Below are positions 9,779 through 64,000 of a stretch of DNA of 64,000 bases, in pieces. A program made the position numbers and the translations under genes. How positions within the stretch are numbered: position 1 is the first letter of the stretch; each line of letters starts with the position of its first letter. The stretch comes from Squalus acanthias (taxonomy: Eukaryota), in the NCBI GenBank assembly GCA_030390025.1, contig CM059431.1, positions 153,328,001 to 153,392,000 on the forward strand, read 5' to 3'. Under the pieces are notes generated by a model. The model did not search any database. It saw only the letters and a program-made list of their open reading frames with translations, and had not been told where the DNA came from.

Positions 9779-12700
9779 TCGACTCACTCTTTAAAAGGGC
9801 CCCCTGATAGAAAGACACCATCTTTCAAATGGTCTCTGACGGTGAGACTCTATCTTTAAAAGGTGTGCCTGATATTGAGACAGCCTCTTTAAAAGGGGTC
9901 CCTGATGGTGAGACTCCCTCTTTAATAGGAGTCCCTGATGCTGATACACCCAATTTAAAAGGGATCCCTGATGGTGAGATTGCCTCTTTAAAAGGTGTCA
10001 CAGTGGGGAAAATCTCTCTTTAAAAGTTGTCCCTAATAGAAGACACCCTCTTTAAAAGTTATCCCTGATAGAAAGACTTTCCCTTTAAAATGGGTCCCCG
10101 AGGGTGAGACTACGGGGTAAAAATTCAGTTGGTTGCGCCTCCCATTAGCGCCTTAAGAGGGCGCTAATGGGGCGCAAAGCCACTAACGCCCGGGTGCAGC
10201 GATGTTTGCGCCGGGTCGGGAACTTAACTAGACATTGTGCGGCGGCGCTAAACTTTACCGCTGCGACCACCTGCGCGTGCAGATTGTGACGTCATTCCAT
10301 GGTGCAACGCCCTTGTGCCGCCCCGGAGCGGAAATTGAGTGGCGCCCCCTGCCTTACCGCCTGACGCTAGCTACGACCAGAAGACTGGAACGCTATCAAT
10401 CGCTGTGAGGCTTGGGGGGGCGCTATTTAAAGGGGGCCTCTTCCTGTCTTTTATTGTTGGTGGCATTTTTGAACTACGCATTCTGAGAGAGAGAGGGAGA
10501 GACTTCTGGAGAGATTCAACGTTGTGTGAAGGAGTTTTGGGTACTGAGCAGCACTTTGCAGGTACATTTTGATTTGCCATTCCTTGTATCGATTTAGAAG
10601 AGACTGTGGGGGCTGCACTCTGAGCTCTTTGCCTGGTACAATCCATTGTTCTTTCCTGCACATTTGATGTGCAAGTCTCTCCAGGCCGAGATTCAAGGCT
10701 GCAATGAACAGGATGTGGATGGAAAGCAAGATTAACCATCCCCTTTAAGAACTGGCCCGTGCCATTGTGTGTGTGTTCCATTGCTGACTGACATTACATG
10801 AGCTTCGCCAGCGCTTTGAGGTAGCGCCTCACTCCTTGGCCTTTGCGCCTTAAGACAGGTGTGCAGCGCCTGATTTAGCGCTCCACTCACCTCCCGGGGC
10901 GGTAAAAGTGAAGTTTCCAGTCAGTGGCGATAATTATCGACAGGCGCTAATATTTCCATCTAGACGATATTTGCGCCCCAAATGGGGCGCAACCTAATTT
11001 TTACCCCTACATCTTTAAAAGGGGTCCCTGATAGAATTAATCTCTATTTAAAAGGTGTCCCTGATGATGATACTCCCTCTTTAAAAGGGGTCCCTGATAG
11101 TGTGACTGCCTCTTTTAAAGTGTTCCCTGACGGTGAGACTCCCTCTTTTAAAGGGTTCCCTGATGATGAGACTCCCTCTTTAAAAGGGGTCCCGAAGTGT
11201 GAGAATCTCTCTTTAAAAGGCATCTCTGATGGTGCAGACTCACTCTTTAAAATGGGTCCCTGATGTTAAGACTCTCTTTAAAACGACTCCCTGATAGAAA
11301 GATTACCTCTTTAAACGGGTCTCTGATGGTGAGAATCTCTCTTTTTAAAGGTCTCCCTGATAGATAGACTCCCTCTTTAAAAGTTATCCCTGATGATGAG
11401 ACTCACTGTTTAAAAGGGATCCCTGACGTTGAGTCTTCCTCTTTAAAGGGCCCCTGTTGGAGAGAATCTCTCTTTAAAAGATATCCCTAAAAGGAAGATT
11501 CACTTTAAAAGGTGTCCCTGATGCTGAAACACCCTCTTTAAAATGGCTCCATGATAGAAAGACTCCCTCTTTAAAAGGGATACCTCATGGTGAGTCTAAG
11601 ACTTTTATAGGTCTCCATGGTGGTGAGACTCACTCTTTAAAAGGGCTCCCTGATAGAAAGACTCCCTATTTAAAAGATAATCTGACGGTTAGACTCTCAC
11701 TTTAAAAGTGATCCCTGATGGTGAGAGTCTCTTTAAAAGGGGTCCCTCTTGGAGAGGCTCTTCCATTAAAAGGGGTCCCTGACCGGAATACTCCCTCTTT
11801 TAAAGGGGCCCCAGATGATGAGACTCTCTCTTTAAAAGGGGTCCCAAATGCAGAAGAAACCTCTTTAAAAGGGGTCCCTGATTGGGGCACTACCAATTTA
11901 AAAGATTTCCCTGATGGCGAGACTATCTCTTTAAAATGGGACACCCTCTTTAAAAGGGGTCCCTGATGGTTAGCCTGCCTCTTTAATAGGAGTCCCAAAT
12001 GGGGAGACTCTCTCTTTAAAAGGTGCCACTGATAGAAAGAAGCCTTCTTTAAAAGGTGTCACTGAAAGAACGACTCTCTCTTTGAAATGTGTCCCCGTGG
12101 GTGAGACTCCCACTTTAAAATGTGTTCCTGATAGAAAGACTCCCTTTTAAAAGATGTCGCGGAAGGTGAGACTCCCTTTTTAAAAGGGGTTCCTGATGGT
12201 GTGACTCTCTGTATGAAATGGTTCCTTGATGGTCAGACTCTCGCTTTAAAAGAATTCCCTGATGTTGAGACTGCCTCTCTAAAAGGCGTCCCTGATGGCG
12301 AGACTCTCTCTTTAAAAGGCGTTCCTGATGTTGAGACTCCCTCTTTCAATGGGGTCCCTGATGGTTAGACTCTCTCTTTAAAATGTGTCCGTAATAGGAT
12401 GATTCTCGTTCAAAGGGTTGACTGATGGTGGGACTATCTCTTGAAAATAGGTCACTGATTGTGAGACTCTCTCTTTAATAGGAGTCCCTGATGGTGAGAC
12501 TCCCTCTTTAATAGAAATCCCTGATGCTGAAACAGTATCTTTAAAAGGGGTCCCTGATGGTGAGACACCCTCTTTAAACGGTGACCCTAATGGGGAGATA
12601 CTCTCTTTATAAGGGATCCCTGATTGAAAGTCTTCTTCTTTAAAAAGTGTCCCTGATGCTGAAACACCCTTGTTAAATGGGGTCCCTGATGGTGAGCCGC

Positions 12701-15700
12701 TTTGAAAGCGGTCCCTAATGGGGAGATACTCTCTTTAAAAGGGGTCCCTAATGGTGAGACTCCCATTTAAAAGGGGTCCCTGCTGGTGAAACTCCCTCAT
12801 TAAAAGGGGCCGCTAATGGTGAGACACCATCTTTAATGATGATGCGACACTCTTGAAAAGATGTCCCTGATGGGGAGACTCCATCTTTAAAAGGGGTCTG
12901 TGATAGTGAGACTCACTCTTTAAAATTGGTCCTGGTGGAGAGACTCCCTCTTTAAAAGAGTCCCTGATGGAGACACTCCAAATTTAAAAGGTGTCCCTGA
13001 TGGGGAGACACCCCTTTGAAATGTGTACCTGATGGAGTAATTCCCTCTTTAAAAGGGTTCCCTGATGGTGAGACTCACTCTTTAAAAGGGTCCCTGATGG
13101 TTAGTCTCTCTCTTTTAAAGGGGTTCCTGCAAGTGAGACACCCTCTTTAAAGGGGTTCCCGAAGTGTGAGACTCTCTTTTTAACAGGGATCTCTGATGGT
13201 GAGACTCACTCTTTAAAAGACACTCTGATAGAAAGACTCCCTCTTCAATATTAGTCCGGAGGATGAGATGCCCTATTTAACAGGGGTCCCTGATAGAAAG
13301 AGTCTCTCTTTTAAAGGGGTCCCTGATAGTCAGACTCTCTTTTTAAATGGGATCCCTGATGGTGAGACGCTGTCAATAAAAGATATCCCTGATGATGAGA
13401 CACCCTCTTTAAAAGGGGTTCCTGATGGTGAGACTCCTTCTTTAATATCACTCCCAGATGTAAAACACCCTCTTTAAAAGGGTTCCCTGATGGTGAGACT
13501 CACTCTTTAAAATGGCTCCCTGATGGTGAGACACTGTCATTAAAAGAGGTATCTGATGGGCAGACTCTCTCGTTAAAAGGGGTCCCTGATGGTAAGACTC
13601 ACTCTTTAAAATGGTTCCCTGATGGTGAGACACCGTCTTTAGAAGGGGACTCTGATGGTGAGACACCCTCTGTAAAAGGAGAACCTGAAGTTGAGACTCT
13701 CTTTAAATGGGGTCCCTGATAGAAATACTCTCTCTTTAAAAGGTGTCCCTAATAGGAAGATTCTCTTTAAAATTGGTCCCTGGTGGTGAGACTCCCACTT
13801 TAAAAGGGTCCCTGGTGCAGATATTTGCTATTTAAATGGTGTCCCTGATGGTGAGAACCCTCTTTAAAAGGGACCCTGAAAGAAAGACTCTCTCTGTAAA
13901 TGGGGTCCCTGATGGCGAGACTCCCTCTTTAAAAGGGGTGCCTGATGGCGAGACTCCCTCTTTAAAAGGGGTCCCTGATGGTGAGACTCCCTCTTTAAAA
14001 GGGGTCTCTGCTGGCGAGACACTCACTTTAAAAGATGTGCCTCACAGGAAGATTTTTTTTAAAGGGTTCCCTGATGGTGAGACTCTCCCTTCAAAAGTTG
14101 TCCCTGGGTGTGAGACTCTCTCTTTAAAAGGCATCTCTGATGGTGAGTCTCCCTCTTTAAAAGGGGTCCCTGATGCTGAAACACCTTTTTTAAAACGGGT
14201 CCCTGATGGTGAGACTACCTCTTTAAAAGGTGTCCCGGATGGCGTGACTCTCTCTTTAATAGGGGTCCCTGATGGGGAGACTCCGTTTTTAAAAGGGGTC
14301 CCTGATGATGAGACTTCCTCTTTAAAAGGGTCCCTGATGGTGAGACTCCCTCTTTAAAAAGGGTTTAAGATGGTGAGACTCCCTCTTTTAAAGGGCTCCC
14401 TGAGAGAAAGACTATTTAAAAGGGTCTCTGACGGTTAGACTTTCTCTTTAAAAGGTGTGCCTGATGTTGAGACAACTTCTTTAAAAAGGGTCCCTGATGG
14501 TGAGACTACCTCTTTAGTAGGAGTCCCTGATGCTGAAACACACTTTTTAAAAGGGATCCCTGATGGTGTGTCTAGCACTTTTACAGGGATCACTGGTGGT
14601 GAAAGTCACTCTTTAAAAGGGCTACCTGATATAAAGACTCCCTCTTTAGAATGGTCTCTGACGGTGAGCCTCTCTCTTTAAAAGTGATCGATAATTGTAT
14701 GACTCTCTCTTTATAATGTGTCCCTGGTGGAGAAGCTCTCTCATTAAAATGGGTCCCCGACGGGGATACTCCCTCTTTTAAAAGTGCCCCTGATGGTGAG
14801 ACTCTCACTTTAAATGGTGTCTCTCATTGGAAGATTCTCTTTAAAAGGGCTCCGTTATGGAAAGACTCCCTCTTTAAAAGTGTCTCTGATGGTGAAACTC
14901 CCTCCATAGGAGGGCTCCCTGATCGTAAGACTCACTCATTAAATGGAGCCCTGATGGTAAGACTCACTCTTTGAAAGGGCTCCCTGATAGACAGACTTAC
15001 TCTTTAAATTGGTCTCTGACGGTGAGAAGTCCTTTAAACGTTTACCCTGAGGGGGAGACTCCATCTTTAAATGGGGACCCTGATGTTGATACTCCCTCTT
15101 TAATAGGAGTTCCTGATGCTGAAACACCCTCTTTAAAAGGGGTCCCTGCGGGTGAGACACCCTCTTTAAAAGGGGTCCCTGATGGTGAGACTCCCTCTTT
15201 AAAAGGTGTCTCTGCTGGCGAGACACTCACTTTAAAAGATGTGCCTAATAGGAAGATTTTTTTTAAAAGGGTTCCCTGAGGGTGAGACTCTCCCTTCAAA
15301 AGTTGTCCCTGGGTGCGAGACTCTCTCTTTAAAAGGCATCTCTGATGGTGAGTCTCCCTCTTTAAAAGGTGTCCCGGATGCTGCAACACCTTTTTTAAAA
15401 CGGGTCCCTGATGGTGAGACTCCCTCTTTAAAAGGTGTCCCGGATGGCGTGACTTTCTCTTTAATAGGGGTCCCTGATGGGGAGACTCCGTTTTTAAAAG
15501 GGGTCCCTGATGATGAGACTTCCTCTTTAAAAGGGTCCCTGATGGTGAGACTCCCTCTTTAAAAAGGGTTTAAGATGGTGAGACTCCCTCTTTTAAAGGG
15601 CTCCCTGAGAGAAAGACTATTTAAAAGGGTCTCTGACGGTTAGACTTTCTCTTTAAAAGGTGTGCCTGATGTTGAGACAACTTCTTTAAAAAGGGTTCCT

Positions 15701-18481
15701 GATGGTGAGACTACCTCTTTAGTAGGAGGCCCTGATGCTGAATCACACTTTTTAAAAGGGATCCCTGATGGTGAGATTGCCTCTTTAAAAGGTGTCCATA
15801 ATTGTGAGACTCTCTCTTTAAAATAAATCCCGGATAGATAGACTCTCTCTAAAATGTGTGCCCGAGAGTGAGACTGCCTCTTTGAAAGGGGTTCCTGATG
15901 GTGAGACACCCTCTTTAAAAGGGGTCCCTAAGTGTGAGACTCTCTCTTTAAATGTGATCTCTGATGGTAAGTTCAAGCTTTAAAACGGGTCCCTGATGGT
16001 AAGAATCTCTTTAAAAGGGCTCCCTGAAAGAAAGACTCCCTCTTTAAACGGGTCTCTGATGGGGGGACTGTTTCTATTTAAAGGGCTCCCTGATAGAAAG
16101 AGTCCATTTTAAAAGGTATCCCTGATAGTGAGACTCTCTCTTTAAAATGTATCTCTAATGGTGAGACAAACTCTTTTAAAGGGATCCCTGGTGGAGAAAC
16201 CCTTTCATTAAAAGAGGTACCTGATCCTGAAACACCCTCTTTAAAAGGGGTCTCTGATGGGGAGACTCTCTCTTTAAAATGGCTCACTGACAGAAAGATT
16301 CCCTTTTTAAAAGGGATCCCTGATGGTGTGTCTCGCACTTTTACAGGGATCACTGGTGGTGAAAGTCACTCTTTAAAAGGGCTACCTGATATAAAGACTC
16401 CCTCTTTAGAATGGTCTCTGACGGTGAGCCTCTCTCTTTAAAAGTGATCGATAATTGTATGACTCTCTCCTTATAATGTGTCCCTGGTGGAGAAGCTCTC
16501 TCATTAAAATGGGTCCCCGACGGGGATACTCCCTCTTTTAAAAGTGCCCCTGATGGTGAGACTCTCTCTTTAAATGGTGTCTCTCATTGGAAGATTCTCT
16601 TTAAAAGGGCTCCGTTATGGAAAGACTCCCTCTTTAAAAGTGTCTCTGATGGTGAAACTCCCTCCATAGGATTGCTCCCTGATCGTAAGACTCACTCATT
16701 AAATGGAGCCCTGATGGTAAGACTCACTCTTTGAAAGGGCTCCCTGATAGACAGACTTACTCTTTAAATTGGTCTCTGACGGTGAGAAGTCCTTTAAACG
16801 TTTACCCTGAGGGGGAGACTCCATCTTTAAATGGGGACCCTGATGTTGATACTCCCTCTTTAATAAATGTTCCTGATGCTGAAACACCCTCTTTAAAAGG
16901 GGTCCCTGCGGGTGAGACACCCTCTTTAAAAGGTGTCCCTGATGGTGTGACGCCCTCTTTAAATAGGGTCCCATATGGAGACACTCCCTCTTTAAAAGGG
17001 GTCGCTGATGCTGAGAATCCGTATTTAAAATGGATAACTGATGGGGAGACACCCCCTTTAAAATGTGTACCTGATAGAGACACTCCCTCTTTAAAAGGGC
17101 CCCTGATGGTGATGCTCACTCTTTAAAAGATGTCTCTCATTGGAAGATTAACTTTAAAAGGTCTCCCTGATAGAAAGACACACTCTTTAAAAGTGTCTCT
17201 GATGTTAAAACTCCCTCTTTAGGAGGGCTCCCTGATCGAAAAACTCCCTCTTTAAAAGGGAACCCTGATGGTGAAACTCCGATTTTGAAACGGCTCCCAA
17301 TAATGACCGACTCGCTCTTTAAACGGGTCTCTCCCGGTGAGACTCTCTTTAAAATATTTCCCTGATGGTGAGTCTCCCCCTGTAAAAGGGGTCCCTGAAG
17401 GTGAAAAACCCTATTTAAAATGGTCCCTGATGTTGAGACTCTCTCTTTACAAGGTGTCCCTAATAGGAAGATTATTTTTAAATGGGTCCCTGATAGAAAG
17501 TCTCCCTCTTTAAAGCATTCCTTTAAAGAAAGACTTTCTCTTTAAAATGGGTTCCCTTTTGGTGAGACTATCTCTTTAAAATTGTTCCCTAATAGGAAGA
17601 TTCTCTTTAAAAGGGGACCATGATAGAAAGACTCCCTCTTCCAAAGGGGTCCATGATGGTGGGACACCCTCATTAAAAGTGCTCCCTGATGGGGAAAAAC
17701 CCTCTTTAAAAGGTTTCCTTGTTGGAGAGACTCTCTCATTAAAAGGGGTCCCTGACAGGGATGCTCCCTCTTTAAAAGGGGCCACTAATGGGGAGATTCT
17801 CTCTTTTAAATGGGATCATGTTGGATTGACTCTCTCCTTAAAAGTGGTTCGTGACAGGTAAGCTCCCTCTTTAAAAGTGGCCCCTGATGTTGAGGCTCTC
17901 TCTTTAAAAGTGGTCCCTGATGCTGATACAGCCTCTGTAGAATGGGTACTTAATGCTGAGACTCCCTCTTTAAAAGGGGTCCTTGATGGTGAAACTATCT
18001 ATTTAAAGATGTCCCTAATAGGAAGATTCTCTTTAAAAGGGGGCCCTGCTAGAAAGACACCATCTAAAAAAGGGGTCCCTGATGGTGAGACTCCCTCTTT
18101 GAAACGGATCCCTAATGGGGAGATTCTCTCTTTAAAAGGTGTCCCTGATAGAAATACTCTCTCTTAAAAGGGGATCCTGATGTTGAGACTCCCTTTTTTA
18201 AAGGGGTCCCTGATAGAAAGACTCTCTTTAAAAGGGGATTCTGATGTTGAGACTCCCTTTTTTAAAGGGGTCCCTGATGGCGAGACTCTCTCTTTAAAAG
18301 GGGTCCCTCATGGGGAGACTCACTCTTTAAAATGGGTCCCTGATGTTAAGACTCTCTTTAAAAGGACTCCCTGATAGAAAGAATCCATCTTTAAGAGGAT
18401 CTCTGATGGTGAGACTCCCTCTTTAAAAGGGCTCCCTGATGGTGAGACACTCTCTTTAAAAGTGATCCCTGATGGTGAGAC
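9779..18481 (+). repeat. 33-bp satellite, forward, block 2 (contains the Harbinger derivative at 10114-11007)
   Basis: Same monomer as block 1, with internal ~0.6-kb higher-order duplications. Confidence 0.97.
10114..11007 (-). mobile_element. Non-autonomous PIF/Harbinger deletion derivative (894 bp)
   Basis: TIRs GGGGTAAAAATT...AATTTTTACCCC and a 3-bp TSD TAC (10111-10113/11008-11010). Both arms are reverse-complement homologues of the two ends of the element at 35161-42963. No coding region. Confidence 0.92.
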
Positions 18482-19615
18482 TGAAGTGTTAATTACTAGT
18501 CCTAGCCCCTTTAGGGCTTATCCGGAACAGGCGTATTTCTCAGACATTCACTTTCAACTAAAGTTTGAGTTAGCCGAATCCTAAAGGCGCTTAATTGTGT
18601 CTGAAGATCGGGACTATATCTCCCGAAAGGAAAGGAACAACCTGGAAATGTTACCGAACTCGAAATAGCACTTTTAATAAGTTTAGCTAGACTGTAACGT
18701 TCCGGATATTATGAGGATAAGGAAAAATCCCCCAGAATTCTTCAACTTCTCACGAAAGTGTGTACAGAGATTGAATTTGCGAGTTTGATACAGAAGTCAT
18801 ATGTGAGTCAATATAAAAAAAATATATAGATAGATTAAATAACCGACATGTAATTTACAGTTGGTGTGTCAATCGCAACATTAACAGTTCCAAAAAATGA
18901 AAGATTTACAATCTTATTATCAGAGATCCTTATTCTCAAATCTTAACTTCGCTGCAGTTTTACTGTTCTTAAAGATTATTTAGGATATCCACCAAAATCA
19001 AATATAGTAACTTTGATCCCCGAGGTACAAATTCTTGTAGAATTACGGAGCCACCTCTGAAGCTGAGAATCGCTTTGCCCGTTAAAGCGTGTCTACTATC
19101 CCATTTGAGAGTTCAATATTTGCACACTTTTCCAGTGTTATTTCCTTTAAGCTTTTCTGCAGATGTAAGCTAATTATCTATATTCATTTTTCTGCAGACC
19201 CCTGCATTCCAAGTCTCCTCAGCTGGTAGTAATACAGAGTCGTGTCTTCTCTAGGTGTTCCAAGCTTACCATAAAAAACGGTGTAACAGCAGGTGCCTTT
19301 CATTTGATGTCATTTTTACTAAGACCTTCTGTTTGTGCCTCTTTACGAAGTGTAAATAAGAACAACTTGTACAGTGTTAAACTTTGTTTTGTTACGAAAG
19401 GTTCAGATTGTCGGGAGTCTTTAACCTTCGGCTTCAATCAGATTATTGATTCAGTGTCAACAATTATCTTACCTCTATACCAGAATTCTATCATAGCTTT
19501 AGATTGTTGAGGCTTCCAGATTTCCAAACCCAGTTTGCCATGTTTTAATAAGGCCAGAATTCTTTCATACTGTGGTGTGCTTTACTGAATAGGTTATATG
19601 GCTTATTCCTTCACA
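18482..19615 (-). mobile_element. Solo LTR of the foamy-like ERV family (1134 bp)
   Basis: TG...CA ends, colinear with the provirus LTRs at 23803 and 45390. Perfect 4-bp TSD AGAC (18478-18481/19616-19619). Confidence 0.9.
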
Positions 19616-19744
19616 AGACTCCTCTTTCAAAGTGTCTCTGAATGTGAGACTCCCTCTTAAAAAGGAATCCCTAATGGGTAGATTCTCTCTTTAAAAGGGG
19701 TTCCTGATGGTGAGATTTTCAGCATCCGCAGTATTTTGCTATCG

Positions 19745-20560
19745 TATTGAATTTCTAATACTACTTCAAATGTTTATTTTATCAGACGTTGTGACTCCGT
19801 GGTATTCCATGATCAATAAAAGAACAATGTAATTGCTTGTTGCTTCCTTTGAAGTAATATTTTCAAAGTCGTCTTGTTTGCGTACTTTTTACAACTTGTA
19901 AATTAAAAACACTTCTCTAGTATCATCATGCATTTCTAATTTGCTTCAATTGATTTTTAACTTGGGACTCCACCTTTCAAGCTTAACGTTAGAACTATTT
20001 GTTCAGAAGGCATTTATTTTACTTGATGTCATTTCTTTAAAGCCTTCTGTAGGTATTATATTTACAATATGTTAATTGAAAATACTTTAACTCAAGTGTT
20101 TAATTGTTTTCTCGCTATTTGAATTAGTTGCATATTTAATGATGTTTCCTCTTTCTAAGTTTAACATAAATCTATTTTACGATAGGTATTTCTTACTTGA
20201 TGTCATTTTTTCAAAAGCACTTTGTTTTTTTTAATGTTCTGTGCACCTGTTCGACGTGTTAGATTATAACACTTTACTTGGGTCATTCCATTGTTTTTCT
20301 CCCAAACTCTGGACATAGAGGAACCTCCCAATGGTTTGCTTCAATAGGGCATTGTCTTTCACAATATCCCATTCCCATATCAAAGCTTGTGTTTACAGCT
20401 TTGTGTTAACAAACCATCATATCTCATAAGCCTGTATTGTGCCCTCAGCCTGTGTCGCCGAGGCTTTCAGACTTTTAAACCCAGTATGTCATTTATTAAT
20501 AATTTCAGAATTCTGTTTTTAGTATCGTGCATTTTTCTGAATCCTGGCTATTCCTTCACA
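19745..20560 (-). mobile_element. Partial LTR (U3 portion only) of the foamy-like family
   Basis: Ends in GGCTATTCCTTCACA like the other LTRs, then AGAC and satellite. Colinear with 63175-63977. The R/U5 half is missing. Confidence 0.85.
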
Positions 20561-23500
20561 AGACTCTCTCATTAAAAGCGTTCCATGATGGAGAGACTAT
20601 CTCTTTAAAAGCGGTCCCTGATGCTGAGATTCCCTCTCTAAATGGGTCCCTAATAGGAAGATTCTGTTTAAAAAGGGTCCCTGATAGAGAGACACACTCT
20701 TTAAAAGGGATTCCTAATGGGGAGACTCTCTCTTTAAAAGGGATTCCTAATGGGGAGATTCTCTCTTTTGAAGGGTCCCCTGATGGTGAGACGCCCTCTT
20801 TAAAATGAGACCCTGACGTTGAGACTCGCTTTAAATGGGGTCTCTGATGGTGAAACTCCCACTTTACAATAGTCCCTGATGATGAGACTCTCTCTTTAAA
20901 AGGTGTCCCTTATCGGAAGATGTGTTTAAAATGGGTCCCTGATAGAGAGACAACCTCTTTAAAAGGGATCCCTGTTGGTGAGACTCCCTCTTTAAAAGGG
21001 ATCCCTAAAGGGGAGATTCTCTCTTTAAAAGGGGTCCCTGATGTTGAGACTCCTGCTTTAAAAAGGGGATGGTGAGTCGCCCTCTTTAAAAGGGGTCACT
21101 GACGCAGACACGCCACCTTCAAAAGTTATCCCTGATGGAGCGACTCCCTCTTTAAAAGGGGTCCCTGATGGTAAGACTCTCTCTTTAAAGATGTCCCTGA
21201 TGATGAGACATCCTCTTCAAAATGGGTCTCTGGTGTTGATATTCTCTCTCTAAAAAGGTGTCCATGGTGGAGAGACACTCTCATTAAAAGGGGTCCCTGA
21301 CAGGAATACTCTCTATTAAAAGGGGTCCCTGATGGTGAGACTGCCTCTTTAAAAGGGATCCCTAAAGGGGAGATTCTCTCTTTAAAAGGGGCCCCTGATT
21401 TTGAGACGCCCTCTTTAAAAGGTGACCCTGTCGGTTAGACGCTCTTTAAAAGGGGTCTCTGATGTTGAAACTCCTCTTTAAAATGGGTGCCTGATGTTGA
21501 GGCTCTCTCTTTAAAGGGGTTCCCAGATGGTGAGTCTCCCTCTTTAAAAGGGGCCACTGATGGAGACACTCCACCTTTAAAAGTTTTCCCTGATGGAGAG
21601 ACACCCTCTTTAAAAGGAGTCCCTGATGGTAAGACTCTCTCTTTAAAAGTTGTCCCGAATAGGAAGATTCTCTTTAAAAGGTGTCCTTGACAGAAAGAAT
21701 CACTCTTTAAAAGTGGTCCTTCATGGAACGACACTTTCTTTAAAATTGGTTCCCGAGTGTTAGACTCCCTCTTTAAAAGATGCCCTGATGATGAGACATC
21801 CTCTTTAAAAGGGGTCCTGATGGTGAGATTCTCTCTTTAAAAGGGGTCACTGGTGGAGAGACTCTCTCATTAAAAGGGGTCCCTGACAGGGATACTCCCT
21901 CTTTAAAAGGGGTCCCTGATGGTGAGACTCTCTCTTTAATAGGGTTCCCTGCTGCTAAACACCCTCTTGAAACGGGGTTCTGGATGGTGAGACTCCATTT
22001 TTAAAGAGTGGTCCGTGATGCGTAGACACCCTCTTTAAAAGGGTTTCCTAATGGCGAAAATCTCTCTTTCAAAGTTGTCCCTGATTTAAAGACGCCCTCT
22101 TTAATAGTATTCCCTGGTGCTGAAACACCTTTTTAAAACGGGTCCCTGGTGGTGAGCCTCTTTAAAATGGGTCTCTAATCGGGAGGCTCTCTCTTTAAAA
22201 GTGTTAACTGATAGAAATACTCTCTTTTTAAAAGGGGTCCCTGATGGTGAGACTCCCTTTTTAAAATGGGTCCATGATGATCAGACTCCCTCTTTAATAG
22301 GATTCCCTAAGGCTGAAACACTCTCTTTAAAGGGGTCCCTTATGGTGAAATTTCCTCTTTAAAAGGGGTCCCTGATCGCGAGATTCTCTCTTTAAAAGGG
22401 GTCCCTGATGGGTTCACACCCTCTTTAAAATGGGTCCCTGATTGTGAGACTCTCACTTTAAAAGATATCCCTAATAGGAAGATTCTCTTTAAAATGGGTC
22501 CCTGATGGTGAGACTCTCTTTAATAGGGTTCACTGAAGGGGAGACTCCATCTTTAAAAGGGATCCATGATGGTGAGACACTCATTTTAAAAGGGGTCCCT
22601 GATGGTGAGACTCCCTCTTTAAAAGGGGTCCCTGGTGGAGAGACTCTCTCATTAAAAGGGGCCCCTGCCAGGTATACTCCCTCATTAATAGAGGCCACTG
22701 ATGGTGTGACTCTCTCTGTAAAACGGGTCCCTGATTTCGAAACACCCTCTTTAAAATGTGTTCTGGATGTAGAGACACCCTCTTTAAAAGGGGTCCCTGA
22801 TGGTGAGACTTGCACTTTAAAAGGGGCCCCTGATGGTGAGACTTCCACTTTAAAACAGGTCCCTGATGCTGAAACACCCTCTTTAAAAGTAGTCCCTGAT
22901 GGCGAGACTCGCTCTTTAACAGGAGTCACTGATGGGGAGAGTCCATCTTTAAAAGGGGTCCCTGATGGTGAGACTACCTCTTTAAAAGGGATCCCTAATG
23001 GAGAGATTTTCTCTTTAAAAGGGTCCCTGATGGTGAGACTCCCTTTTTAAATGGGGTCCTTGATGGTGAGACTCCCTATTTAAAAGGGAATCCTGATTGA
23101 GGGACTATCTCTTTAAAAGTGGTCCGTGAGGGTGAATCCCCCTTGAAAAGTTGACCCTAATAGGAAGATTATCTTTAAAAAGGGTCCCTAATAGAATTAC
23201 ACCCCATTTAAAGGTGGTCCCTAATGGGGAGATTCTTTATTTAAAAGGGGTCCCTGATAGTGAGACTCCCTCTTTAAAGGGGGTCCCTGAGTGTGCGACA
23301 CTCTCTTTAAAAAGGATCTCAGATGTTAATACTCACACTTTAAAAGGGAATCCTGATGGTGAGATACACTCTTTAAAAGGTCTCCCTGATAGAAAGACTC
23401 CCTCTTTAAAAGGGTCTCTGACGGTGAGAATCTCTCTTTAAAGAGGGCCCCTGCTGGTGAAACACCCTACAAAAATGCGTCTCTGATGGGGTGAATCTCT

Positions 23501-23802
23501 ATTTAAAAGAGTTCCCTGAATAATGTGTCCCTGATGGTGAGACTCCCTCTTTAAAAGTGGTCCCTGATGGAGACACACCCACTTTAAAAGGGGTCCCTGA
23601 TGGTGAGACTTTCTTTAAAAGTGTCCCTAATAGGAATAATCTTTTTACGATCGGTCCTTGATAGAAATACTTTCTCTTTAAAAGTGGTCCCTGAAGCTGA
23701 AACACCCTCTTTAAAAATGGTCCCTGATGGTGAGACTCCCTCTTTAAAAAGGACCCCTGCAAGTGAAAATTCCTCTTTCAAAGGGGTCCCTGATGGTGAG
23801 AC
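20561..23802 (+). repeat. 33-bp satellite, forward, block 3
   Basis: Same monomer; ends at GGTGAGAC|TG, the LTR junction. Confidence 0.97.
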
Positions 23803-25213
23803 TGAAATAATTATTACCAGTCCTAGCCCTTTTCTGGCTACCCCGGATCAGGCGTATTCCCCAGAAGTTCACCTTTAACTGAAGTTAGAGTTAGCTGAAT
23901 CCTAATGACGCTTAATTTCTCTCCCTAAAGGAAAGGAACGACCTGAAGATGTTACCGTGCTCCAGATAGCACTTTTAATAAGTATAGCTAGACTGTAACC
24001 TTCCGGTTATTATGAGGGTCCGGAAAACTCCTCCAGAATTCAGCAACTCATCACCAAAGAGTGTACAGAGATTGATTTTGCGAGTTTGATACAGAGGTAC
24101 TATTTGAGACAATTCTAAAAAAACATAGATTTATTAAAGATTCGACATGTAGTTGCAGTTGTTGATTCATTCGTAACTTTAACAGTTCAAAATACAAAAA
24201 AACTTTCAATTCTTATCAGAGATCCTTATTCTCAAATCTTAACTTCGTTACATTTTTACATTTCTTACTTAGTCTTATTCCAGAATATCCACCAAAATCA
24301 AATACAAGTACCTTTGATCCCCGAGACTTAACGAGTTGAAAACTTTTACAGAGCTTGCCTCTGAAGTCTGAGAATCGCTTTGCCCCTTCCAGCGAATTCT
24401 GTCTTCCTATTTGTAATTACAATCTTTTATGCTCTTTCTCATTGGTATATCCTTTGAAGTTTTCTGCTGATGTAAGCTAATTATTTCTAGTCATTTTCCT
24501 GTTGACCCCTGCTTTTCTTACAATTAGTTCAGCTTGTAGTTTGCAGAATTATGTCTGCTGTGTAAGTGTTCGAATCTTATCATAAAAAACGGTTGCAACA
24601 GATGTATCTATTTGATGCCATTCTGACGAAAGTCTTCAATTCAATTATTATGTCACCTCAGCTGGTTGTATTATAGATCTCGTGTGTCCTCGGTGTTCCA
24701 AATTCAACACAAAAACAATGTGATGGCTGTTGCATCTATTGATGTCATATTTATGAAAGTCTTATGTTTATATATTTTTAGAACATGTAAATTAAAACCA
24801 CCTCAACTGGGTATCTCATTGTCTTCTTAGCAGCCTCAGTTGGTTGCAATAAATAATCGTGTCTCGTGATTCATTTGATGTCTCCTGTGTTTCATTTGAT
24901 GTCATATCTATGAAGGCATATGTTTCTTTAATGTTCTGTGTTTCATTTCACAAAGTGTTGGTTTATGACACCTAAACAGGGTATGGCTATTGTGTTTTTT
25001 CTCAAGCTACAAACTTTTGGGAACCTCTAACCTTCTGCTTCAATGAGTCTATTGTTTCAGTGTCAACAACTTAACTTATCTCAAAAGCCTACATTCTTTT
25101 TACAGCTTTTCCTTGTTGAGCCTTTCAGATTTCCAAGCCCAGTTTGTCATGTTCTAATCAGAATTATTTCATAGGATGGTGTATTTTTCAGAAATATGAC
25201 ATGTTCCTTCACA
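23803..25213 (-). repeat. 3' LTR of the foamy-like provirus (1411 bp)
   Basis: Direct repeat of 45390-46813, with TG...CA ends and a minus-strand AATAAA at 24130-24135. Preceded on the minus strand only by a degraded purine run (CAAGAGTAGTT). Confidence 0.9.
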
Positions 25214-25737
25214 AACTACTCTTGACCAAAAAATGCACTGGACCATCTAGACAGAGTGTGATCAATGTTACTAATAAGATTACAATAGCACATTAATTCC
25301 ACGTGATTCACAAACATGTGCTTCATTAAAATTCCTTTTAAGTTATTCTAGGACAATGTTTTGCCTTATTTTAAATTGAACACAATCAGCGAAATAACAT
25401 GTACTTAGAATGTGCAATCGGCAGATGTTCATTCCGTAGAGGTGAGTTATTCAAGGAGACATCATTTCGAACTAAATGTAGCTTAAGAACATAAGGACAT
25501 AAGAAATAGGAGCAGGAGTAGGCCAATCGGCCACTTGAGCCTGCTTCACCATTCAATAAGGTCATGGCTGATCTGATCCTAAACGTCAATCTACTATCAC
25601 AGAACCATCTCCTGAACCTAACAGAATTGGACACACGAAATAGGAGGAGGATCAGGCTACACGGCCCCTGGGACCGCTAGGCTACCCACAGGGCCATGAC
25701 CGATCCAAATATGGACTCATGTCCAAATTCCTGCCCG

Positions 25738-28701
25738 CTACCCGTAACCCTTAATTCCCTTTACTTCTAGGAAACTGTCTATTTCTGTTTTAAATTTATG
25801 TAATGATGTAGCTTCTACAGCTTTTTGGGGCAGCATATTCCATGGACCTACCATCCTCTGAGTGAAGTAGTTCCTTCTCATCTCAGTTTTGAAAGAGCAG
25901 CCCTTTATTCTAAGACTATGCCCCCTAGTTCTAGTTTCACCCATCATCGGGAACATCGTCCCCGCATCCACCCGATCCATCCCCTTCACAATCTTATATG
26001 TTTCAAAAAGATCGCCTCTCATTCTTCTGAACTCCAATGTGTAGAGTACAATCTACCCAACCTCTCCTCATATGTCCATCCCCTCATCCCCGGGATTTAC
26101 CTAGTGAACCTTCTTTGTACTGACTCGAGAGCAAGTATGTATTTTCTTAAGTATGGACACCAAAACTGTATGCAGCATTCCAGGTGCGGTCTCACCAATA
26201 CCTTGTACAACTGAAGCAATACCTCCCTATTTTTATATTATATCCCCCTAGCAATGAAAGCCAACATTCCATTGGCCTTCTTAATCACTTGCTGCACCTG
26301 CATACTAAACTTTTGAGTTTCGTGCACCAGGACCCCCAGATCCCTTTGCAGTTCAGTACTTTCCAGTTTCTTGCCATTAAGATAATAACTTGCTCTACTA
26401 TTTTTCCAGCCAAAGTGCATAACCTCACACTTTCCAGTATTGTATTACATCTGCCAAATCTCTGCCCACTTACTTAGACTGTCTATGTCCCCTTGCAGAT
26501 ATTTTATGTCCTCCTCACTCACTACTTTCCCTCCCATCTTAGTATCAACTGCAAACTTTGATAAGTTGCACTCGGTCCCCTCCTCCAAATCGTTAATATA
26601 GATTGTAAAGAGTTGGGGAACCAACACTGACCCCTGCGGAACACCACTAGTTACTGATTGCCAGTCTGAGAATGAACCATTTAGCCCAACTCTCTGCCTT
26701 CTGTTAAATAGCCAATCCTCTATCCATGCCAGAATATTACCCCCAATCCCGTGATTTTTTATCTTAAGCAATAATCTTTTGTGTGGCAACTTGTCAAATG
26801 CCTTTTGGATGTCTAAATACACCACATCCACTGCTTCCCCCTTATCCACCCTGTATGTTACTTCCTCAAAGAACTCCAGCAAATTTGTCAAACATGACTT
26901 CCCGTTCATAAAACCATGCTGACTTTGTCTTATTAAATTATGATTATCCAAATGTCCCGTTACTGTCTCCTTAATAATGGACTCCAAAATTTTACCTACC
27001 ACAGATGTTAGGCTAACCGGTCTATAGTTTCCAGCCTTCTGTCTACTGCCCTTTTTAAATAAGGGTCTTACATTAGCAGTTTTCCAGTCTGCCGGGATCT
27101 TTGTTGAGTCCAGAGAGTTTTGGAAAATGATTACCAATGCATCCACAATCCCTACCGCCACTTCCCTCAAGACCCTAGGATGTAAGCCATCAGGTCCAGG
27201 TGATTTATCCGCCTTGAGTCCCATTATTTTACCGAGTACCACTTCCTTTGTGATTTTGATCGTGTTTAGCTCCTCCCCCCATATAGCCCCCTGTTTGTCC
27301 AGTGTTGGGATAGTCTAGTGTCCTCTACTGTAAAGACTGATACAAAATATTCATTCAGTGTATTTGCCATCTCCATATTTCCCACCATTAATTTCCCGGT
27401 CTCATCCGCTAAGGGACCAACATTTACTTTAGCCACCCTTTTTCTTTTTATATAACTATAAAAACTCTTACTATCTGTTTTTATATTTTTTGCTAATTTA
27501 CTTTAATAATCTATCTTTCTATTGTTAATCAATCTTTTTGTTATTCTTTGCTATCTTTTAAAGTTTTCCCAATCCTCTATCCTCCCACTAGATTTGGCAA
27601 TCTTATAAGCCCTTGTTTTTAGTCGAATACTATCTTTAATTTCTTTACTAAGCCACGGATGACTGTCTTTTCTTTTACACCCTTTTCTTCTCAGTGGAAT
27701 ATATTTTTTTGGAAGTTGTGAAATAACTCCTTCAATGTACACCACTGATCATGTATCGTCTTACCCTTTAATCTATTTTCCCAATCCACTCTACTCAATT
27801 CCGCTCGCATACCTTCATAGTCTCCTTTATTCAAGCTTAGCACGCTTGTTTGAGATCCAACCTTCTCACCCTCTAATTGAATATGGAATTCATCCATGTT
27901 AAGATCACTCATTCCAAGGGGATCCTTTACTACCATTTTTAATTAATCCTGTCTCGTTACACAGGACCAGTTCTAAGGTTGCTTGCCCCCTGGTCGGTTC
28001 AACAACATACTGCTCAAGAAACCCATCCCTAATACACTCAATCAACTCATCCTCAAGGCAGCCCTGCCCAATTTGATTTGTCCAATTAAATGATAGTTAA
28101 AATCCCCCATAATTATAGATGTTCCCTTATTACAAGCCTCAACTATTTCCTGATTGATACTCCGTCCAACAGAGTTGCAACTGTTCGGAGGCCGATAGAC
28201 TACCCCCAGTAGTGTTTTTTTCCCCTTATTATTCCTTATCTCCACCCAAACTGTTTCATTATCATGATCTTTTAACCCAATATCATTTCTCTGTATTACA
28301 GTGATTACTTCCTTTATTAACATAGACAACCCACCTCCCATTCTTTCCTGCCTGTCCTTCCTGATCGTTAAATAACCTGGTATGTTTAATTCCGAGGCAT
28401 TGTCACCCTGCAGCCATGTTTCTGTAATTGCCAAAAGATCATACCCATAAGTAGTTATTTGTGCCATTAACTCGTCAATTTTGTTATGAATGCTACGTGC
28501 ATTCAGATAGAGAACTTTCAAATATGTTTTGTGAAATTTAGTTCCTGCTTTTGCCCTTTTTATTACTTTAGCTTTTACTCCATACCTTCTGCCCCTTCCT
28601 GACACTCTCTGGTTTTTAATTTCCCCACTACTACCTAATTCTATGACCTTCTCTATTTTCATTTTCATTATTTGCTCTCTAGGAACCTCCCCCCACCCCA
28701 C
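25738..28701 (-). pseudogene. CR1 ORF2 (EN+RT), frameshifted with stops
   Basis: Fragments 28042-28701 (YLNARS, ITETW, GDFN), 27691-27936, 27551-27745, 26445-27242 (NYRPVSLTS, GVPQGS, FAVD in place of FADD), 26238-26420 and 25738-26037. Confidence 0.92.
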
Positions 28702-28902
28702 CCACCACTAGATAGTTTAAATCCCTCTCGACAGCCCTAGTTATATGATCCGCCAGGACTCTAGTCCCAGCACTGGCCAAGTGAAGCCCGTCCCAACGGA
28801 ACAGCTCCCTCCAGCCCCAATACTGGTGCCAGTGTCCCAGGAAGCAAAACCCATTTCTACCACACCAGTCTTTGAGCCACTCATTTAACTCTCTAATTTT
28901 AT

Positions 28903-31292
28903 TTACCTAGCCAAATTCGATCGTAGCTCAGGTAATAATTCAGAGATTTTTACCCTTGAGGTTCTGTTTTTTTTTAATTTGACCCCTAGCTGCTCATACT
29001 CCTTTAACACAACCGGCTTCCTTGTCCTATCGATGTCGTTTGTACCAACATGGACCACGACAACTGGATCTACCCCCTCCCACTGCAAGTTTCTTTCCAG
29101 CCCAGATGAGTTGTCCTTAACCCTGGCACCGGGCAGGCAACACAGCCTATGGGACTCTCGCACTCGGCTGCAGATAACTCTATCTATTCCCCTAATAATA
29201 CTATCCCCTACCACTACAACATTTCTACTTACTCACCCCTCTTTAGAGGCCCCCCGTTCCACGGTGCTGTGGCCAGGTTGCTCATCCTCCCTGCTGTCCC
29301 TGCTCCTGTCCCCACTGTAGAATTCGCAAAATTATCGCGATTTTATAATAATAAGGAGACATAAAGTTTCGAATAAACAGCTTTATTTCAGCAGAATGCT
29401 GTCAGGTTTCAAAACGGACACAAACAGCCTATAAAATGGCCGCCACGCCTCGTGGCAGAAAGTTCTAGACTTTCAGTAGGCAGACAAGATGGCGTTTCAA
29501 TAAACATTTCAGCAAGATCGGACAGGACTCAGCACATTTGAGATAATGACATGACGTGATGGGTTTGCATTTTAAACATAAATACTGGAATCGGTCTTCC
29601 AGGTGCAAACAAGGGCTATTGTACTGAGCGATCAAGGACCCATCCAAAGACATTAATATGCAAAATCCCACGGCTCTACGATGAGAGAGCCGTTCGCGGG
29701 TACTCACAGCAATCATTTGGAAGCCCCAAAACCCCTCCAGGGAGACTACTAGCCGGTTCCACAATGGGAGAAATATTAACGGGTACTCAGACAGTTACAA
29801 GTGTCCCCGAAACCCATTAAAGACTGAGATCACCCCATACAAGATGTTTTGAGCGCCAAAACCTGACAAAAGATAGACATTAAGATTGGGCGGGAAAATA
29901 GGAATTACAGCACTATAACTGTAAAGTACAACCGTCCATCTTTCTCTTGCTGCTTTGACTCGCTGGAAGGCTGCTGAACTCTTACTCTCTTGCCTGACGA
30001 CTCTGGACTCTGATCCGCTAGGATCAACCTCGTGGCTTGCCGCGAAGATCTGTAGAGAACTGGGCTGTGAGGCCTGGAGGCGGGCGCACCATCCCGAGGA
30101 GTCGGTAAACGGTGTTGGAACCGAAGGACCGAGAGGAGATGAGATGAGATGAGATGAGAAGAAGACTACACGTGTCGCCGCGGTCAGTAAGCCCCGACCG
30201 CGCCTAAAAATATAAGGACCATTTTTCGAATTCTATCGGCTACTCCACAACTGGCCCGAGAAGACTATTCTTCGAGTTCTACCGACAACTGGTGTAGGAC
30301 ACAGGAAGACTCTTTTTTGAGTAGTATCAGAACTCCGAGGTCAACACAGATCTTCATGACAGCAGACGGTCCAGCCTGCTAGCCGGAGCAGAAGCGAGTA
30401 AACAAGTGGGGTACAGAGACCCCTGATCAACACGTGGATAGTCAGGTGCTGCGGTAAACACATCCGAGCAGAGTTTCGTAATTCTCCGAGTTATCACAAG
30501 TGGTGAGCATGAGTCTCGATCCTACAAATCTAGATTAGGACAGGTATTGATAGGGGAGGGTTTATGTTTTAAGGATAATTATAATGTGTGTCCCCTTTTA
30601 CGATGTGTCGTGCGCTCCTCGTTTCCCTAAACCTAGTTGCATAACTGTATGTAAGTTTGTACTGTCATTAATCTGTGCTTATGACATGTATTTCGTAATC
30701 TTGAATAATATGCAATAAAGATTATCCATTTCGCACTATTCAATCGGGTCTACCTGAGTTTTCTCTGCATTATTGCTCTCGCACCTAAGTCCAGTGTCAG
30801 AACCGCAAGGGCGAGTGGGTCGAACCACTCACAGGTGTCTAGTGTTACCAGGCTGGCTGGAGACCAGAACAGGCAACAAGGCCTAACCCCGCACTAGCAC
30901 CCAGGCTAAGCACAGAGCCACACGTCACCCCTTACACCACAGGGAGTAAGAACCTCGAACCTGTTGGACTAGAGCAAGGGCTGAGGCTCCTCCAACACAA
31001 CCTCCTGGATCCCCGTACCTGCCTCACTCGTAGTCACACCGTCCTGTCCCGGACCATGGGCTACATCTGAATTAATTAACTTCATAGGTGTGACCACCTC
31101 CTGAAACACAGTGTCCACGTACTTCTCCCTCTCCCTGATGTGTCGCAGTGTCTGAAGCTCAGACTCCAGCTCATCAACTCGGAGTTGGAGTTCCTGTAGC
31201 AGCAGACACTTGTCACAAATGTAATCACCGTGAGCCTCAATGGGATCCACCGGCTCCCACATCTCGCAACAGTAGCACATCACCTGCTCCAT
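28903..31292 (-). pseudogene. CR1 ORF1 (Cys-rich zinc finger/leucine zipper + SGNH esterase-like), split by a solo LTR
   Basis: 30969-31292 has CxCC...CxxC followed by Leu heptads (LQELQLRVDELESELQTL). 28903-29214 has VGDS, CLPGA and HVGTND, the SGNH blocks typical of CR1 ORF1. Confidence 0.88.
29316..30936 (+). mobile_element. Solo LTR (1621 bp) of an unrelated LTR element, inserted in CR1 ORF1
   Basis: TGTA...TACA termini and a 4-bp TSD CCAC (29312-29315/30937-30940). AATAAA at 30714-30719 suggests + orientation (tentative). No visible similarity to the foamy-like LTRs. Confidence 0.85.
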
Positions 31293-31879
31293 CCTATGTA
31301 ATTAATTAATTTGTTTTATTGTTAGATTTGGACACTCTCTGCCCGATTATAGATGGTAGTACCCCTCTAAATAATTCTATTTAAATTAAATCAATCCCAC
31401 TAAATTACGCCAGTTAAATGGTTTACCAACAGTCACTCTGCACCAGAAAGGCCTTATTAACTACAACCCACAGAGTTAAAGTTTGAAAAGAGCACCCTAC
31501 ACCCCACTCACCCGAACTCACACTTACCCAAACTCAGCACTCTCTGCTGAGTCGCACTCAGTGCTTGCTTGCACTAGCACTGGTCTTTTTATACTGTTTG
31601 TTTGTTTACAGCCAAATCAGTCACCCCTGCTGATTGATTAGAAAACTGTTTTACACTGCCTGCTGAGCCAATGTACTCCTACTGCACTGTAAACTTGTTT
31701 TACTCTTCTTAAACCAACATAATCCCAAATATTTAACTTTTACCCTTCACTTAAACTGCTCAAGTACTCTTATCAAGAATGATTTAAAGAGAACTAACAA
31801 TTAAAGAACTCTCACACTTAGCCAAACTCAGCACTCTCTGCTGACTCGCACTCAGTGTTTGCTCGCACTAACACTGGTC

Positions 31880-32192
31880 ACACGCTGTTCCTTCGATCCG
31901 ATGTGTGTACTGATTCTTGTTTTCATAAAGGTCTTGCCAGGCACTCAGTTGATTCCTTCTTCATCCACGATGTCTTCCTCCTTCATTGAAGCAACTCGTT
32001 AATCTTTCCTTGTTTCAGATGTTGCTTTTCGCGAATCCAATTCCTGAGGCTTTGCCAAGCATCGTGTGGAGGAGTCGGCGACACCGTCTGACTGACTTTT
32101 ATCAGTAGTTCGATCGCATCCATTTCCTGTGTCATACTCCAAGCTGGGTCTAGAAAGACAGTGTACGACTGCACCTTGTATTATTCCTCCAT
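31880..32192 (-). pseudogene. env: Possible env 5' remnant (leader region), cut off by the CR1 insertion
   Basis: A second frame starts at ATG 32192 (MEE*YKVQ...PPHDAWQSLRNWIREKQ) and overlaps the pol 3' end, where foamy env begins. Sequence similarity is weak. Confidence 0.4.
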
Positions 32193-41292: not shown

Positions 41293-41391
41293 CTAGAAGC
41301 GGCTTGCTATCAGCCGCTGACGGACGGCCCTTGCAGTTTCACCATTGTGGGCCGCCCTCACGCCTTGGTGCTGCTGCTGATTATCCTCATC

Positions 41392-41422
<31 letters not shown>

Positions 41423-42453: not shown

Positions 42454-42646
42454 ATCTCTTAGCAAGCAAAGTTATGAAGGCCAGAAACCAAAGTACCAGC
42501 GAAGTTAGGATGAGTAGCCAAAACTACCTCACACAGCGTTGTCTCAATGCAGAAGTCTCTCTTTCTCTCTCTCCGAATCTCTCTCTCTCTCTCAGAACGA
42601 GTGGTGCAAAAATGTCAACCACAGAGAAAGACAGGAAGAGGCCCCC

Positions 42647-42791
42647 TTTAAATAGCGCCCCCCCCCAGCCCCACAGCGATTGTTAGCGTTCCACTCTTCC
42701 GGTCGTTGGATGCGCCAGGCGGTAAGGATGGGGGCGCCACTGAAATTCTGCTCGGGGCGCCACAAGGGCGTTGCACTCTAGTATGACGTCA
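42647..42791 (-). promoter_or_regulatory. Putative transposase promoter (CRE + TATA-like)
   Basis: TGACGTCA at 42784-42791 and TATTTAAA (minus) at 42647-42654, upstream of the ATG. Both are retained in the non-autonomous copy (~10288 and ~10424). Confidence 0.45.
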
Positions 42792-45387: not shown

Positions 45388-45389
45388 AC

Positions 45390-63977: not shown

Positions 63978-64000
63978 AGAATCTTACCATCAGGGACCTC
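63978..64000 (-). repeat. Inverted 33-bp satellite resumes
   Basis: AGAATCTTACCATCAGGGACCTC is a partial reverse-orientation monomer. Confidence 0.75.

Follow-up and report, generated by a model that had tools for sequence, protein, structure and literature searches.

Why should several long terminal repeats (LTRs) of one endogenous retrovirus (ERV) family join a satellite at exactly the same nucleotide of its monomer? This question is raised by a 64,000-nucleotide stretch of the Squalus acanthias genome, hereafter the window, that lies on contig 7 (CM059431.1, positions 153,328,001-153,392,000) of a 3.7-Gb assembly. About 30 kb of the window consist of a 33-bp satellite (period 33 in Tandem Repeats Finder, TRF), and LTRs of a retrovirus that is foamy-like by its pol gene are set into it. 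An earlier note had viewed these LTRs as the trace of a satellite-targeting endogenous foamy virus. Our analysis finds that the LTRs sharing the site are independent integrations, that their family is dispersed throughout the genome, that a target logo built from copies outside the satellite places the shared site among the two best phases of the monomer, and that amplification of the array has multiplied the individual insertions. The repeated use of this site probably stems for the most part from an ordinary integrase site preference similar to that of prototype foamy virus (PFV), exposed by the tandem repeat, together with this amplification. The satellite arrays, LTRs and target site duplications (TSDs) of the window are as follows, with monomer positions counted from the T of TGATGG so that AGAC occupies positions 9-12.

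1198-23802, plus orientation: 33-bp satellite array, interrupted by other insertions (TRF period 33)
11012..18481, plus strand: satellite stretch belonging to the 1198-23802 array
18478..18481: left TSD copy AGAC of the solo LTR (monomer positions 9-12)
18482..19615, minus strand: solo LTR, 1134 nt, TG...CA; its U3 starts at 19615
19616..19619: right TSD copy AGAC of the solo LTR
19718..20560, minus strand: U3-side LTR fragment, 843 nt, from a further subfamily, with AGAC (20561-20564) directly beyond its U3 end at 20560
20561..23802, plus strand: satellite array, terminating in GGTGAGAC at 23795-23802
23803..25213, minus strand: 3' LTR of a provirus, 1411 nt, which meets the satellite at the AGAC phase with its U5 end (23803)
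45390..46813, minus strand: 5' LTR of the provirus, 1424 nt, which meets inverted satellite at TCCC with its U3 end (46813)
46814-46817: TCCC junction, monomer positions 6-9, opposite relative orientation
46814..59200, minus strand: the same satellite, inverted, continuing at 61363-62669 and 63978-64000 (TRF)
62670..63977, minus strand: truncated LTR-bearing element of the subfamily of the 20560 fragment; its U3 end abuts AGAA
63978-63981: AGAA junction, monomer positions 12-15, on the inverted array

All five junctions that the earlier note had named are present in the sequence where it placed them, and the phases computed by script agree with its account. The TSD starts at position 9 in plus orientation for the solo LTR, the 20560 fragment and the LTR starting at 23803, which is preceded by GGTGAGAC; these three LTRs consequently share one AGAC in the same relative orientation. 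The TSD starts at position 6 in minus orientation for the 46814 junction and at position 12 in minus orientation for the 63978 junction, that is, 3 bp to either side of the shared site. The LTRs read TG...CA on the plus strand and the virus sense is the minus strand, so that the element at 19718-20560 had correctly been labelled a U3 fragment. Since the pol domains lie on the minus strand and a primer-binding site is found just inside the LTR at 45390, the LTR at 45390-46813 is the 5' LTR and that at 23803-25213 the 3' LTR. The three LTRs at the shared site differ visibly from each other, as had been noticed, and fall into three different subfamilies of our tree. The 20560 fragment is indeed closest to the distant 63977 copy, with 86-87% identity to it and to its paralogue L043, and at most 77-81% to the rest of the set. 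The left edge of this fragment (19717/19718), which is truncated, likewise abuts satellite at GGTGAGAT, the same phase.

Junctions between LTRs and the satellite were collected genome-wide by searching for LTR ends or starts 0-30 nt from a satellite word in both orientations, which covers all but 2 of the 33 phases; a further search took LTR ends that directly adjoin the AGAC 4-mer or its complement. Copies were counted as one group if their flanks were homologous and their LTRs nearly identical. This yielded 21 junction groups (20-23 if three same-phase sets are split or merged), distributed over the monomer as follows.

TSD positions 9-12 (AGAC): 8 groups in plus orientation, 1 group in minus orientation
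TSD positions 6-9 (GTGA): none in plus, 3 groups in minus orientation, including the 46814 junction of the window
TSD positions 3-6 (ATGG): 1 group in plus, 2 groups in minus orientation
TSD positions 1-4: 1 group in plus, none in minus orientation
TSD positions 2-5: 1 group in plus, none in minus orientation
TSD positions 4-7: none in plus, 1 group in minus orientation
TSD positions 5-8: 1 group in plus, none in minus orientation
TSD positions 12-15: none in plus, 1 group in minus orientation, the 63978 type of the window
TSD positions 25-28: none in plus, 1 group in minus orientation

If the 33 phases were chosen uniformly, the probability of finding 9 of the 21 groups at a single one would be bounded by p = 1.5e-7. 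The phase preference proposed earlier thus stands insofar as nine groups, eight of them in one orientation, sit at AGAC; it does not stand as an exclusive rule, as at least eight other phases, hence at least nine in all, and both orientations are in use. Strict orientation exclusivity at AGAC was dropped after later searches had found a group in the opposite orientation. The eight plus-oriented AGAC groups are the solo LTR of the window, the 20560 fragment, the 23803 LTR, four groups termed H1, B, L081 and A1, and one more on contig 7. H1 is a solo LTR flanked on both sides by AGAC, so that two groups, the window's solo LTR and H1, each have a perfect AGAC/AGAC duplication; the right end of B is discordant, falls at positions 25-28 and was left uncounted. 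The further contig 7 group and the minus-oriented AGAC group are known from matched strings alone, are separated by their flanks and the spelling of their LTR ends only, and stand outside all tree tests. A search with a looser pattern, of which 100 of 126 matches were listed, returned mostly an unrelated repeat: among 14 fetched matches with LTR spelling, 6 proved to be true LTR ends, none of them in satellite, and two fetched rows of other spelling belonged to the unrelated repeat.

That the LTRs at AGAC represent independent integrations, as the earlier note had supposed, follows from the LTR tree and from approximately unbiased (AU) tests, which reject a single insertion that was later duplicated. 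In a maximum-likelihood tree of 65 LTRs that includes dispersed copies, the seven AGAC groups contained in it occupy seven separate places among the dispersed copies; B, for instance, pairs with the dispersed copy L016 at 93%, and H1 is the sister of L023. A single clade for all plus-oriented AGAC LTRs is rejected with p = 1.6e-41, one for all satellite copies with p = 2e-65, and one for the three position-6 groups with p = 6e-32; the pairs solo LTR plus B (p = 4e-4) and H1 plus P1 (p = 0.008) are rejected as clades as well, although some of the smaller groupings were chosen only after the tree was known. Same-phase copies therefore do not form one clade, and homology of the satellite flanks is confined to copies of the same group.

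Within the groups the picture is different. Here the copies are 92-99% alike and their flanks are homologous, and each junction group has been multiplied to 2-11 copies, which lie within the 152.83-153.50 Mb region of contig 7 as well as on numerous unplaced contigs. These copies are the product of amplification, partly inverted, of large array blocks. The solo LTR of the window, for example, has a 98% copy with homologous satellite flanks 86 kb downstream on the same contig, which is a segmental duplicate. The region of the window has direct and inverted paralogues within 0.5 Mb, and on contig 3350 (244-267 kb) the junction type at positions 2-5 recurs four times at a spacing of 7-9 kb.

The notion of a satellite-targeting virus did not hold up in the sense of homing, because the family is dispersed and less than 1% of its copies lie inside the satellite. 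A 16-mer from the LTR end occurs 3,202 times in the genome, compared with 2 occurrences of a control. The solo LTR as query gave 46 matches in the 40 of 4,987 candidates that were scored; of its seven best other copies, six reside in unrelated DNA with 4-bp duplications of their own and one in satellite. In two motif-linked searches, satellite junctions made up 8 of 17 and 15 of 22 matches.

What, then, makes independent insertions meet at one nucleotide? We derived a half-site logo of the target from non-satellite copies only, using 117 U3-end and 104 U5-end flanks (n = 221). At position 1, which is the first base of the duplication, 84 of these flanks have A and 32 have T; A stands at position 6 in 109 and C at position 7 in 90 of them. 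The full target site approximates GTN|ANNT|NAC and is roughly palindromic. It is compatible with the PFV consensus (-3)KWK\VYRBMWM(+6) around a 4-bp duplication, and with the rules that T/A are disfavoured at 0/+3 and favoured at -2/+5, as given in an excerpt of the PFV study (Serrao et al., 2015; PMC4422553). On the monomer consensus, AGAC receives 16-28% of the predicted weight, ranks first among the 33 phases at half-site lengths of 7-8 and second at lengths of 9-10, and falls within the top 1.1% of random sites under the logo; an earlier matrix made from fewer sites likewise had it at the top. DNA sequence, one of the directing causes raised previously, is a real one, given that copies from outside the satellite suffice to put AGAC into the best two phases. 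A check that needs no model points to the same: the exact 8-nt half-site that the satellite offers on the U5 side was found at two dispersed U5 ends and one dispersed U3 end, with 0.03 expected for each. The position-6 site is the only other place in the monomer with a strong NAC half; the model gives it a weight of about 4-5%, and 3 of the 21 groups are found there.

A comparable cluster exists in another dispersed repeat, in which four U5-end flanks and one U3-end flank start at one position (GTCTTT, followed by GGATGAGA or CAGATGAGA), for example on contig 3 at 98.76 Mb, contig 4 at 10.0 Mb, contig 8 at 8.04 and 9.90 Mb, and contig 19 at 31.4 Mb. It seems that this non-satellite repeat is subject to the same kind of hot spot, with both orientations represented.

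These data lend themselves to a simple model. A large, dispersed foamy-like ERV family integrated many separate times into the 33-bp satellite, using an integrase with a weak, roughly palindromic and PFV-like local preference for GTN|ANNT|NAC; the logo presumably reflects contacts between integrase and DNA. As the tandem repeat offers the same 33 candidate sites thousands of times, the best-fitting one, GGTG|AGAC|TCC, would be struck time after time, always at the same nucleotide. Later amplification and inversion of large array blocks then multiplied each insertion 2-11 times. A further local factor, possibly DNA shape, chromatin or a bound protein, may favour the TGATGGTGAGAC half of the monomer.

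This last element of the model is called for by a series of observations that weigh against integrase preference as the full explanation. Position 32 (CCTG) should attract 13-29% of the weight and has none of the 21 groups, and positions 25-33 together should attract 52% and have only one (p = 5e-6). Conversely, the 9% predicted for positions 1-6 is set against 10 of the 21 groups (the tail for at least 11 is 7e-7). The binomial tail for 9 of 21 groups at AGAC is 0.003-0.10 at shares of 0.16-0.28, and of 2,000 bootstrap replicates with a half-site length of 9, only 669 placed AGAC first, against 1,281 for position 32. The 8:1 orientation ratio at AGAC (p = 0.039) is not expected from a symmetric intasome, which predicts no skew, and the logos of the U3 and U5 ends resemble each other at the informative positions 6 and 7, which leaves the skew unaccounted for. 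Taken separately, these two logos even favour the unobserved AGAC orientation about tenfold (share 0.22 versus 0.022); we put this result of an orientation-specific position weight matrix, the opposite of what is observed, down to noise from small differences at positions 3 and 5, and rejected the matrix as an explanation. In contrast to PFV, the family displays no enrichment of YR at the centre of the target (54 of 221 half-sites versus a background of 23%), and central YR flexibility was consequently discarded as the cause of the sites at positions 3 and 6. Finally, 21 groups among a few thousand insertions correspond to a roughly 5-9-fold excess over proportional representation, where the logo predicts about 1.4-fold. 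The satellite share behind this figure, 0.2-2.8 Mb or 0.006-0.076% of the assembly, was scaled from a 16-mer with 6,711 matches genome-wide and 71 in the 30 kb of the window. Survival in heterochromatin, under-assembly of the satellite and later growth of the arrays could all contribute to the excess.

The 4-mers that lie outward of dispersed LTR ends were also counted, with rows sorted by hand and satellite rows, 5 doubtful rows and duplicate flanks excluded. U5 ends are followed by GTCT in 43 cases (63 rows) and by AGAC in 26 (34 rows), U3 ends by GTCT in 18 (18 rows) and by AGAC in 7 (11 rows). Counts that should mirror each other do not match (43 U5 GTCT versus 7 U3 AGAC, and 26 versus 18 for the reverse pair; Fisher p = 0.005), and many of the GTCT-side copies may lack an intact U3 end. 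Because of this mutual inconsistency, the counts permit no conclusion about an intrinsic orientation asymmetry.

The same observations are the strength of an explanation in which a factor beyond contacts of integrase with bases guides the preintegration complex to the satellite and to a particular face of the monomer. Such a factor could be a host protein bound to the satellite, positioned nucleosomes or an intrinsic curvature of the DNA, and Gag or integrase might be what reads it. We regard such directed targeting as unlikely. It would account for the start of 20 of the 21 groups at positions 1-12 and the near-emptiness of positions 25-33, for orientation ratios of 8:1 at AGAC and 0:3 at position 6, with the GTN half-site adjoining the U5 end in 11 of these 12 groups, and for the 5-9-fold enrichment over the assembly share of the satellite. 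Integration of foamy virus is moreover reported to be biased towards satellite DNA and lamina-associated domains (PMC9962126, in excerpt), and a PFV Gag R540Q mutant to go massively to centromeres (PMC12125541, in excerpt). However, fewer than 1% of the LTR ends lie in the satellite, the insertions occupy at least nine phases and occur in either orientation, and dispersed copies by themselves suffice to predict the main hot spot. The enrichment could be explained by the factors named above, and the orientation skew is post hoc and weak, with one group in the opposite orientation. That chromatin or a bound factor directed this lineage, beyond any preference of its integrase, towards a single monomer face with one orientation predominating is in our view rather unlikely; if true, it would be the first retrovirus with a natural satellite preference biased in phase and orientation.

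Far less plausible is the proposal that one old AGAC insertion was copied along with the array, its copies having diverged or been overwritten by gene conversion so that their independence is only apparent. Amplification is admittedly real and extensive, as the 2-11 copies per group and the duplicate of the solo LTR 86 kb away attest, and with monomers that are only about 70% alike any old homology of the flanks would be invisible. However, the AU tests reject one clade, with the qualification on some groupings given above, and each of the groups in the tree clusters with dispersed copies. A conversion tract would have to end within the terminal 150 nt of the LTRs. In every AGAC group examined (5 for the left end, 6 for the right) this part is nearest to some dispersed copy and farther from all other AGAC groups, and no common terminal variants were seen, so that gene conversion is unlikely to have preserved an ancestral junction. 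Together with the perfect AGAC/AGAC duplications that two groups possess individually, these findings speak against both a one-clade origin and a conversion-preserved junction; we consider the proposal largely refuted and very improbable. An artefact, with a collapsed or chimeric assembly of repeat-rich DNA creating false junctions, is highly improbable. It is true that unplaced contigs carry many of the copies, that a run of N interrupts one locus and that satellite regions are error-prone; yet each junction coincides exactly with an LTR terminus and has a 4-bp duplication, at least seven LTR subfamilies are involved, and the junctions recur in copies that are diverged (92-99%) and not identical. 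Integrase preference exposed by a tandem repeat, supplemented by amplification, thus continues to be the reading that we favour.

The foamy-like character of the element can be judged from the provirus between the two LTRs, whose interior holds the following features.

25214..45389, minus strand: decayed proviral interior with nested long interspersed nuclear elements (LINEs) and a Harbinger element
32263-33385, minus strand: integrase pieces
33292-33930, minus strand: RNase H
34220-35230, minus strand: reverse transcriptase (RT)
43000-43881, minus strand: predicted protease
about 45366-45389, minus strand: primer-binding site, conserved in other proviral copies

The primer-binding site beside the 5' LTR is presumably one for tRNA-Lys1,2. 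RT matches foamy PR-RT structures (7KSF, 7O0G, 7O24) at 8e-38, with Ty3 next at 2e-13 and the RT of feline immunodeficiency virus weak at 6e-4; RNase H matches the same kind of structures at 2e-22. The integrase core matches PFV integrase at 5e-26, against 3e-6 for human T-lymphotropic virus, and its zinc and C-terminal domains do so at 1.5e-7 and 8e-7, respectively. The Spuma_A9PTase profile detects a 125-aa open reading frame (ORF) of this decayed copy marginally, with 21.2 bits at a cut-off of 21 (E = 3.5e-4). Among 12 of the ORFs of at least 70 aa in the gag and env regions (5 minus- and 4 plus-strand ORFs in 29.4-32.3 kb, 3 minus-strand ORFs in 43.8-44.9 kb), no Pfam match was obtained at E <= 0.1, which in so heavily decayed a copy says little. 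The LTRs end in TG...CA as in foamy-type elements, and the 4-bp TSDs expected from the earlier description were found to match in all 24 solo LTRs with both flanks (18 exactly, 6 at 3 of 4 bases). By the relationships of its predicted pol domains, the element classifies as a foamy-like ERV.

The flanks of the provirus at 23803-46813 are discordant: its U5 end borders AGAC of the plus-oriented array, its U3 end TCCC of the inverted one; the orientation of the satellite flips exactly at this element. Its LTRs are about 0.17 substitutions per site apart, and paralogues of the 5' LTR differ by 0.04-0.08. These features fit an inversion through recombination between two oppositely oriented proviruses of one subfamily. 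The Harbinger nested in the interior has a DDE_Tnp_4 match at 1e-41 and a Myb ORF. Weak GDSL-lipase-like matches at 28679-29232 (minus strand) lie upstream of a LINE endonuclease and RT, a layout as in esterase-bearing LINEs of the CR1/L2 type. Within the satellite, positions 10112-11011 are occupied by an element of about 900 bp with terminal inverted repeats, probably a small DNA transposon, to which a 357-nt stretch inside the provirus (35161-35517) is 85% complementary. Far more homogeneous 33-bp satellite arrays, with the exact 16-mer nearly every 31-33 bp, are present on contig 5 at 167.3-171.0 Mb.

LTR retrotransposons that target centromeres or satellites, among them chromoviruses and Tal1 of Arabidopsis lyrata, accumulate in tandem repeats, with most of their copies in the target and a targeting domain involved. 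The present family differs from these in that most of its copies lie outside the tandem repeat; no targeting domain was seen in it, although no search aimed at one was made. Another parallel is offered by the HIV-1 integrase mutant K258R, whose integrations in alphoid satellite favour two positions of the 171-bp monomer (Winans et al., 2022; PMC8933506, in excerpt). As here, independent integrations hit the same monomer nucleotide in different repeat copies, and other positions are used too. Unlike here, the enzyme is a mutant lentiviral integrase studied in cultured cells, with about 10% or more of the sites in centromeres and with hot spots that the excerpted report leaves unexplained (PMC8933506); the dogfish family is a natural foamy-like germline lineage with less than 1% of its copies in the satellite and a main hot spot that the logo predicts. 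Among the matches listed in our search of the literature on retroviral integration and satellite hot spots, only this study looked relevant, and neither this search nor one on endogenous foamy viruses and satellite integration yielded a description of a monomer-phase hot spot in foamy viruses or ERVs. Foamy-like ERVs of cartilaginous and other fishes represent the same kind of element and host (PMC4422223, PMC10699275, PMC5210030); the opening parts of their abstracts contain no statement on integration-site preference or satellites.

Foamy viruses are reported to enter satellite-rich heterochromatin more than lentiviruses do, which fits the modest enrichment seen here; their satellite bias and the effect of Gag R540Q are, however, regional and set by the binding of Gag to chromatin, with no fixed nucleotide or orientation in the monomer in the excerpts at hand (PMC9962126, PMC12125541). 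Collectively, the observation that started this work is confirmed and extended and the unexplained remainder is real, whereas targeting of the satellite as such was not shown. A weak preference can take on the appearance of a "homing" site once it is displayed in a tandem repeat, which calls for caution with same-site insertions in satellites. At the same time, the unused good sites, the crowding in one half of the monomer and the orientation skew provide a testable handle on integration into heterochromatin beyond base contacts.

The nearest known system is PFV, whose enzymes, together with those of simian foamy viruses, are the closest relatives of the pol products of this family. The two share the 4-bp duplication, the aversion to T at the first and A at the last duplicated base, the preference for T/A at -2/+5 and for G/T and A/C at -3/+6, and the symmetry of these rules at both viral ends, as reported in the excerpted PFV study (PMC4422553). 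They differ in that the dogfish family lacks the YR enrichment at the site centre, and in that its preferences are read from old germline copies and not from infections (PMC4422553). In PFV integrase, Ala188 is described as a contact to target bases (PMC4005685, in excerpt). The integrase core at 32494-32868 (minus strand), as preserved in one decayed copy, has Arg at the corresponding position (HSDQGRAF versus HSDQGAAF), which could bear on the missing central YR preference. The thousands of old germline insertions constitute a natural record of retroviral target choice, and from them a fish-type foamy-like lineage is seen to share the local target consensus of a primate foamy virus. With this consensus common to both lineages, part of the recognition of DNA by integrase looks very old.

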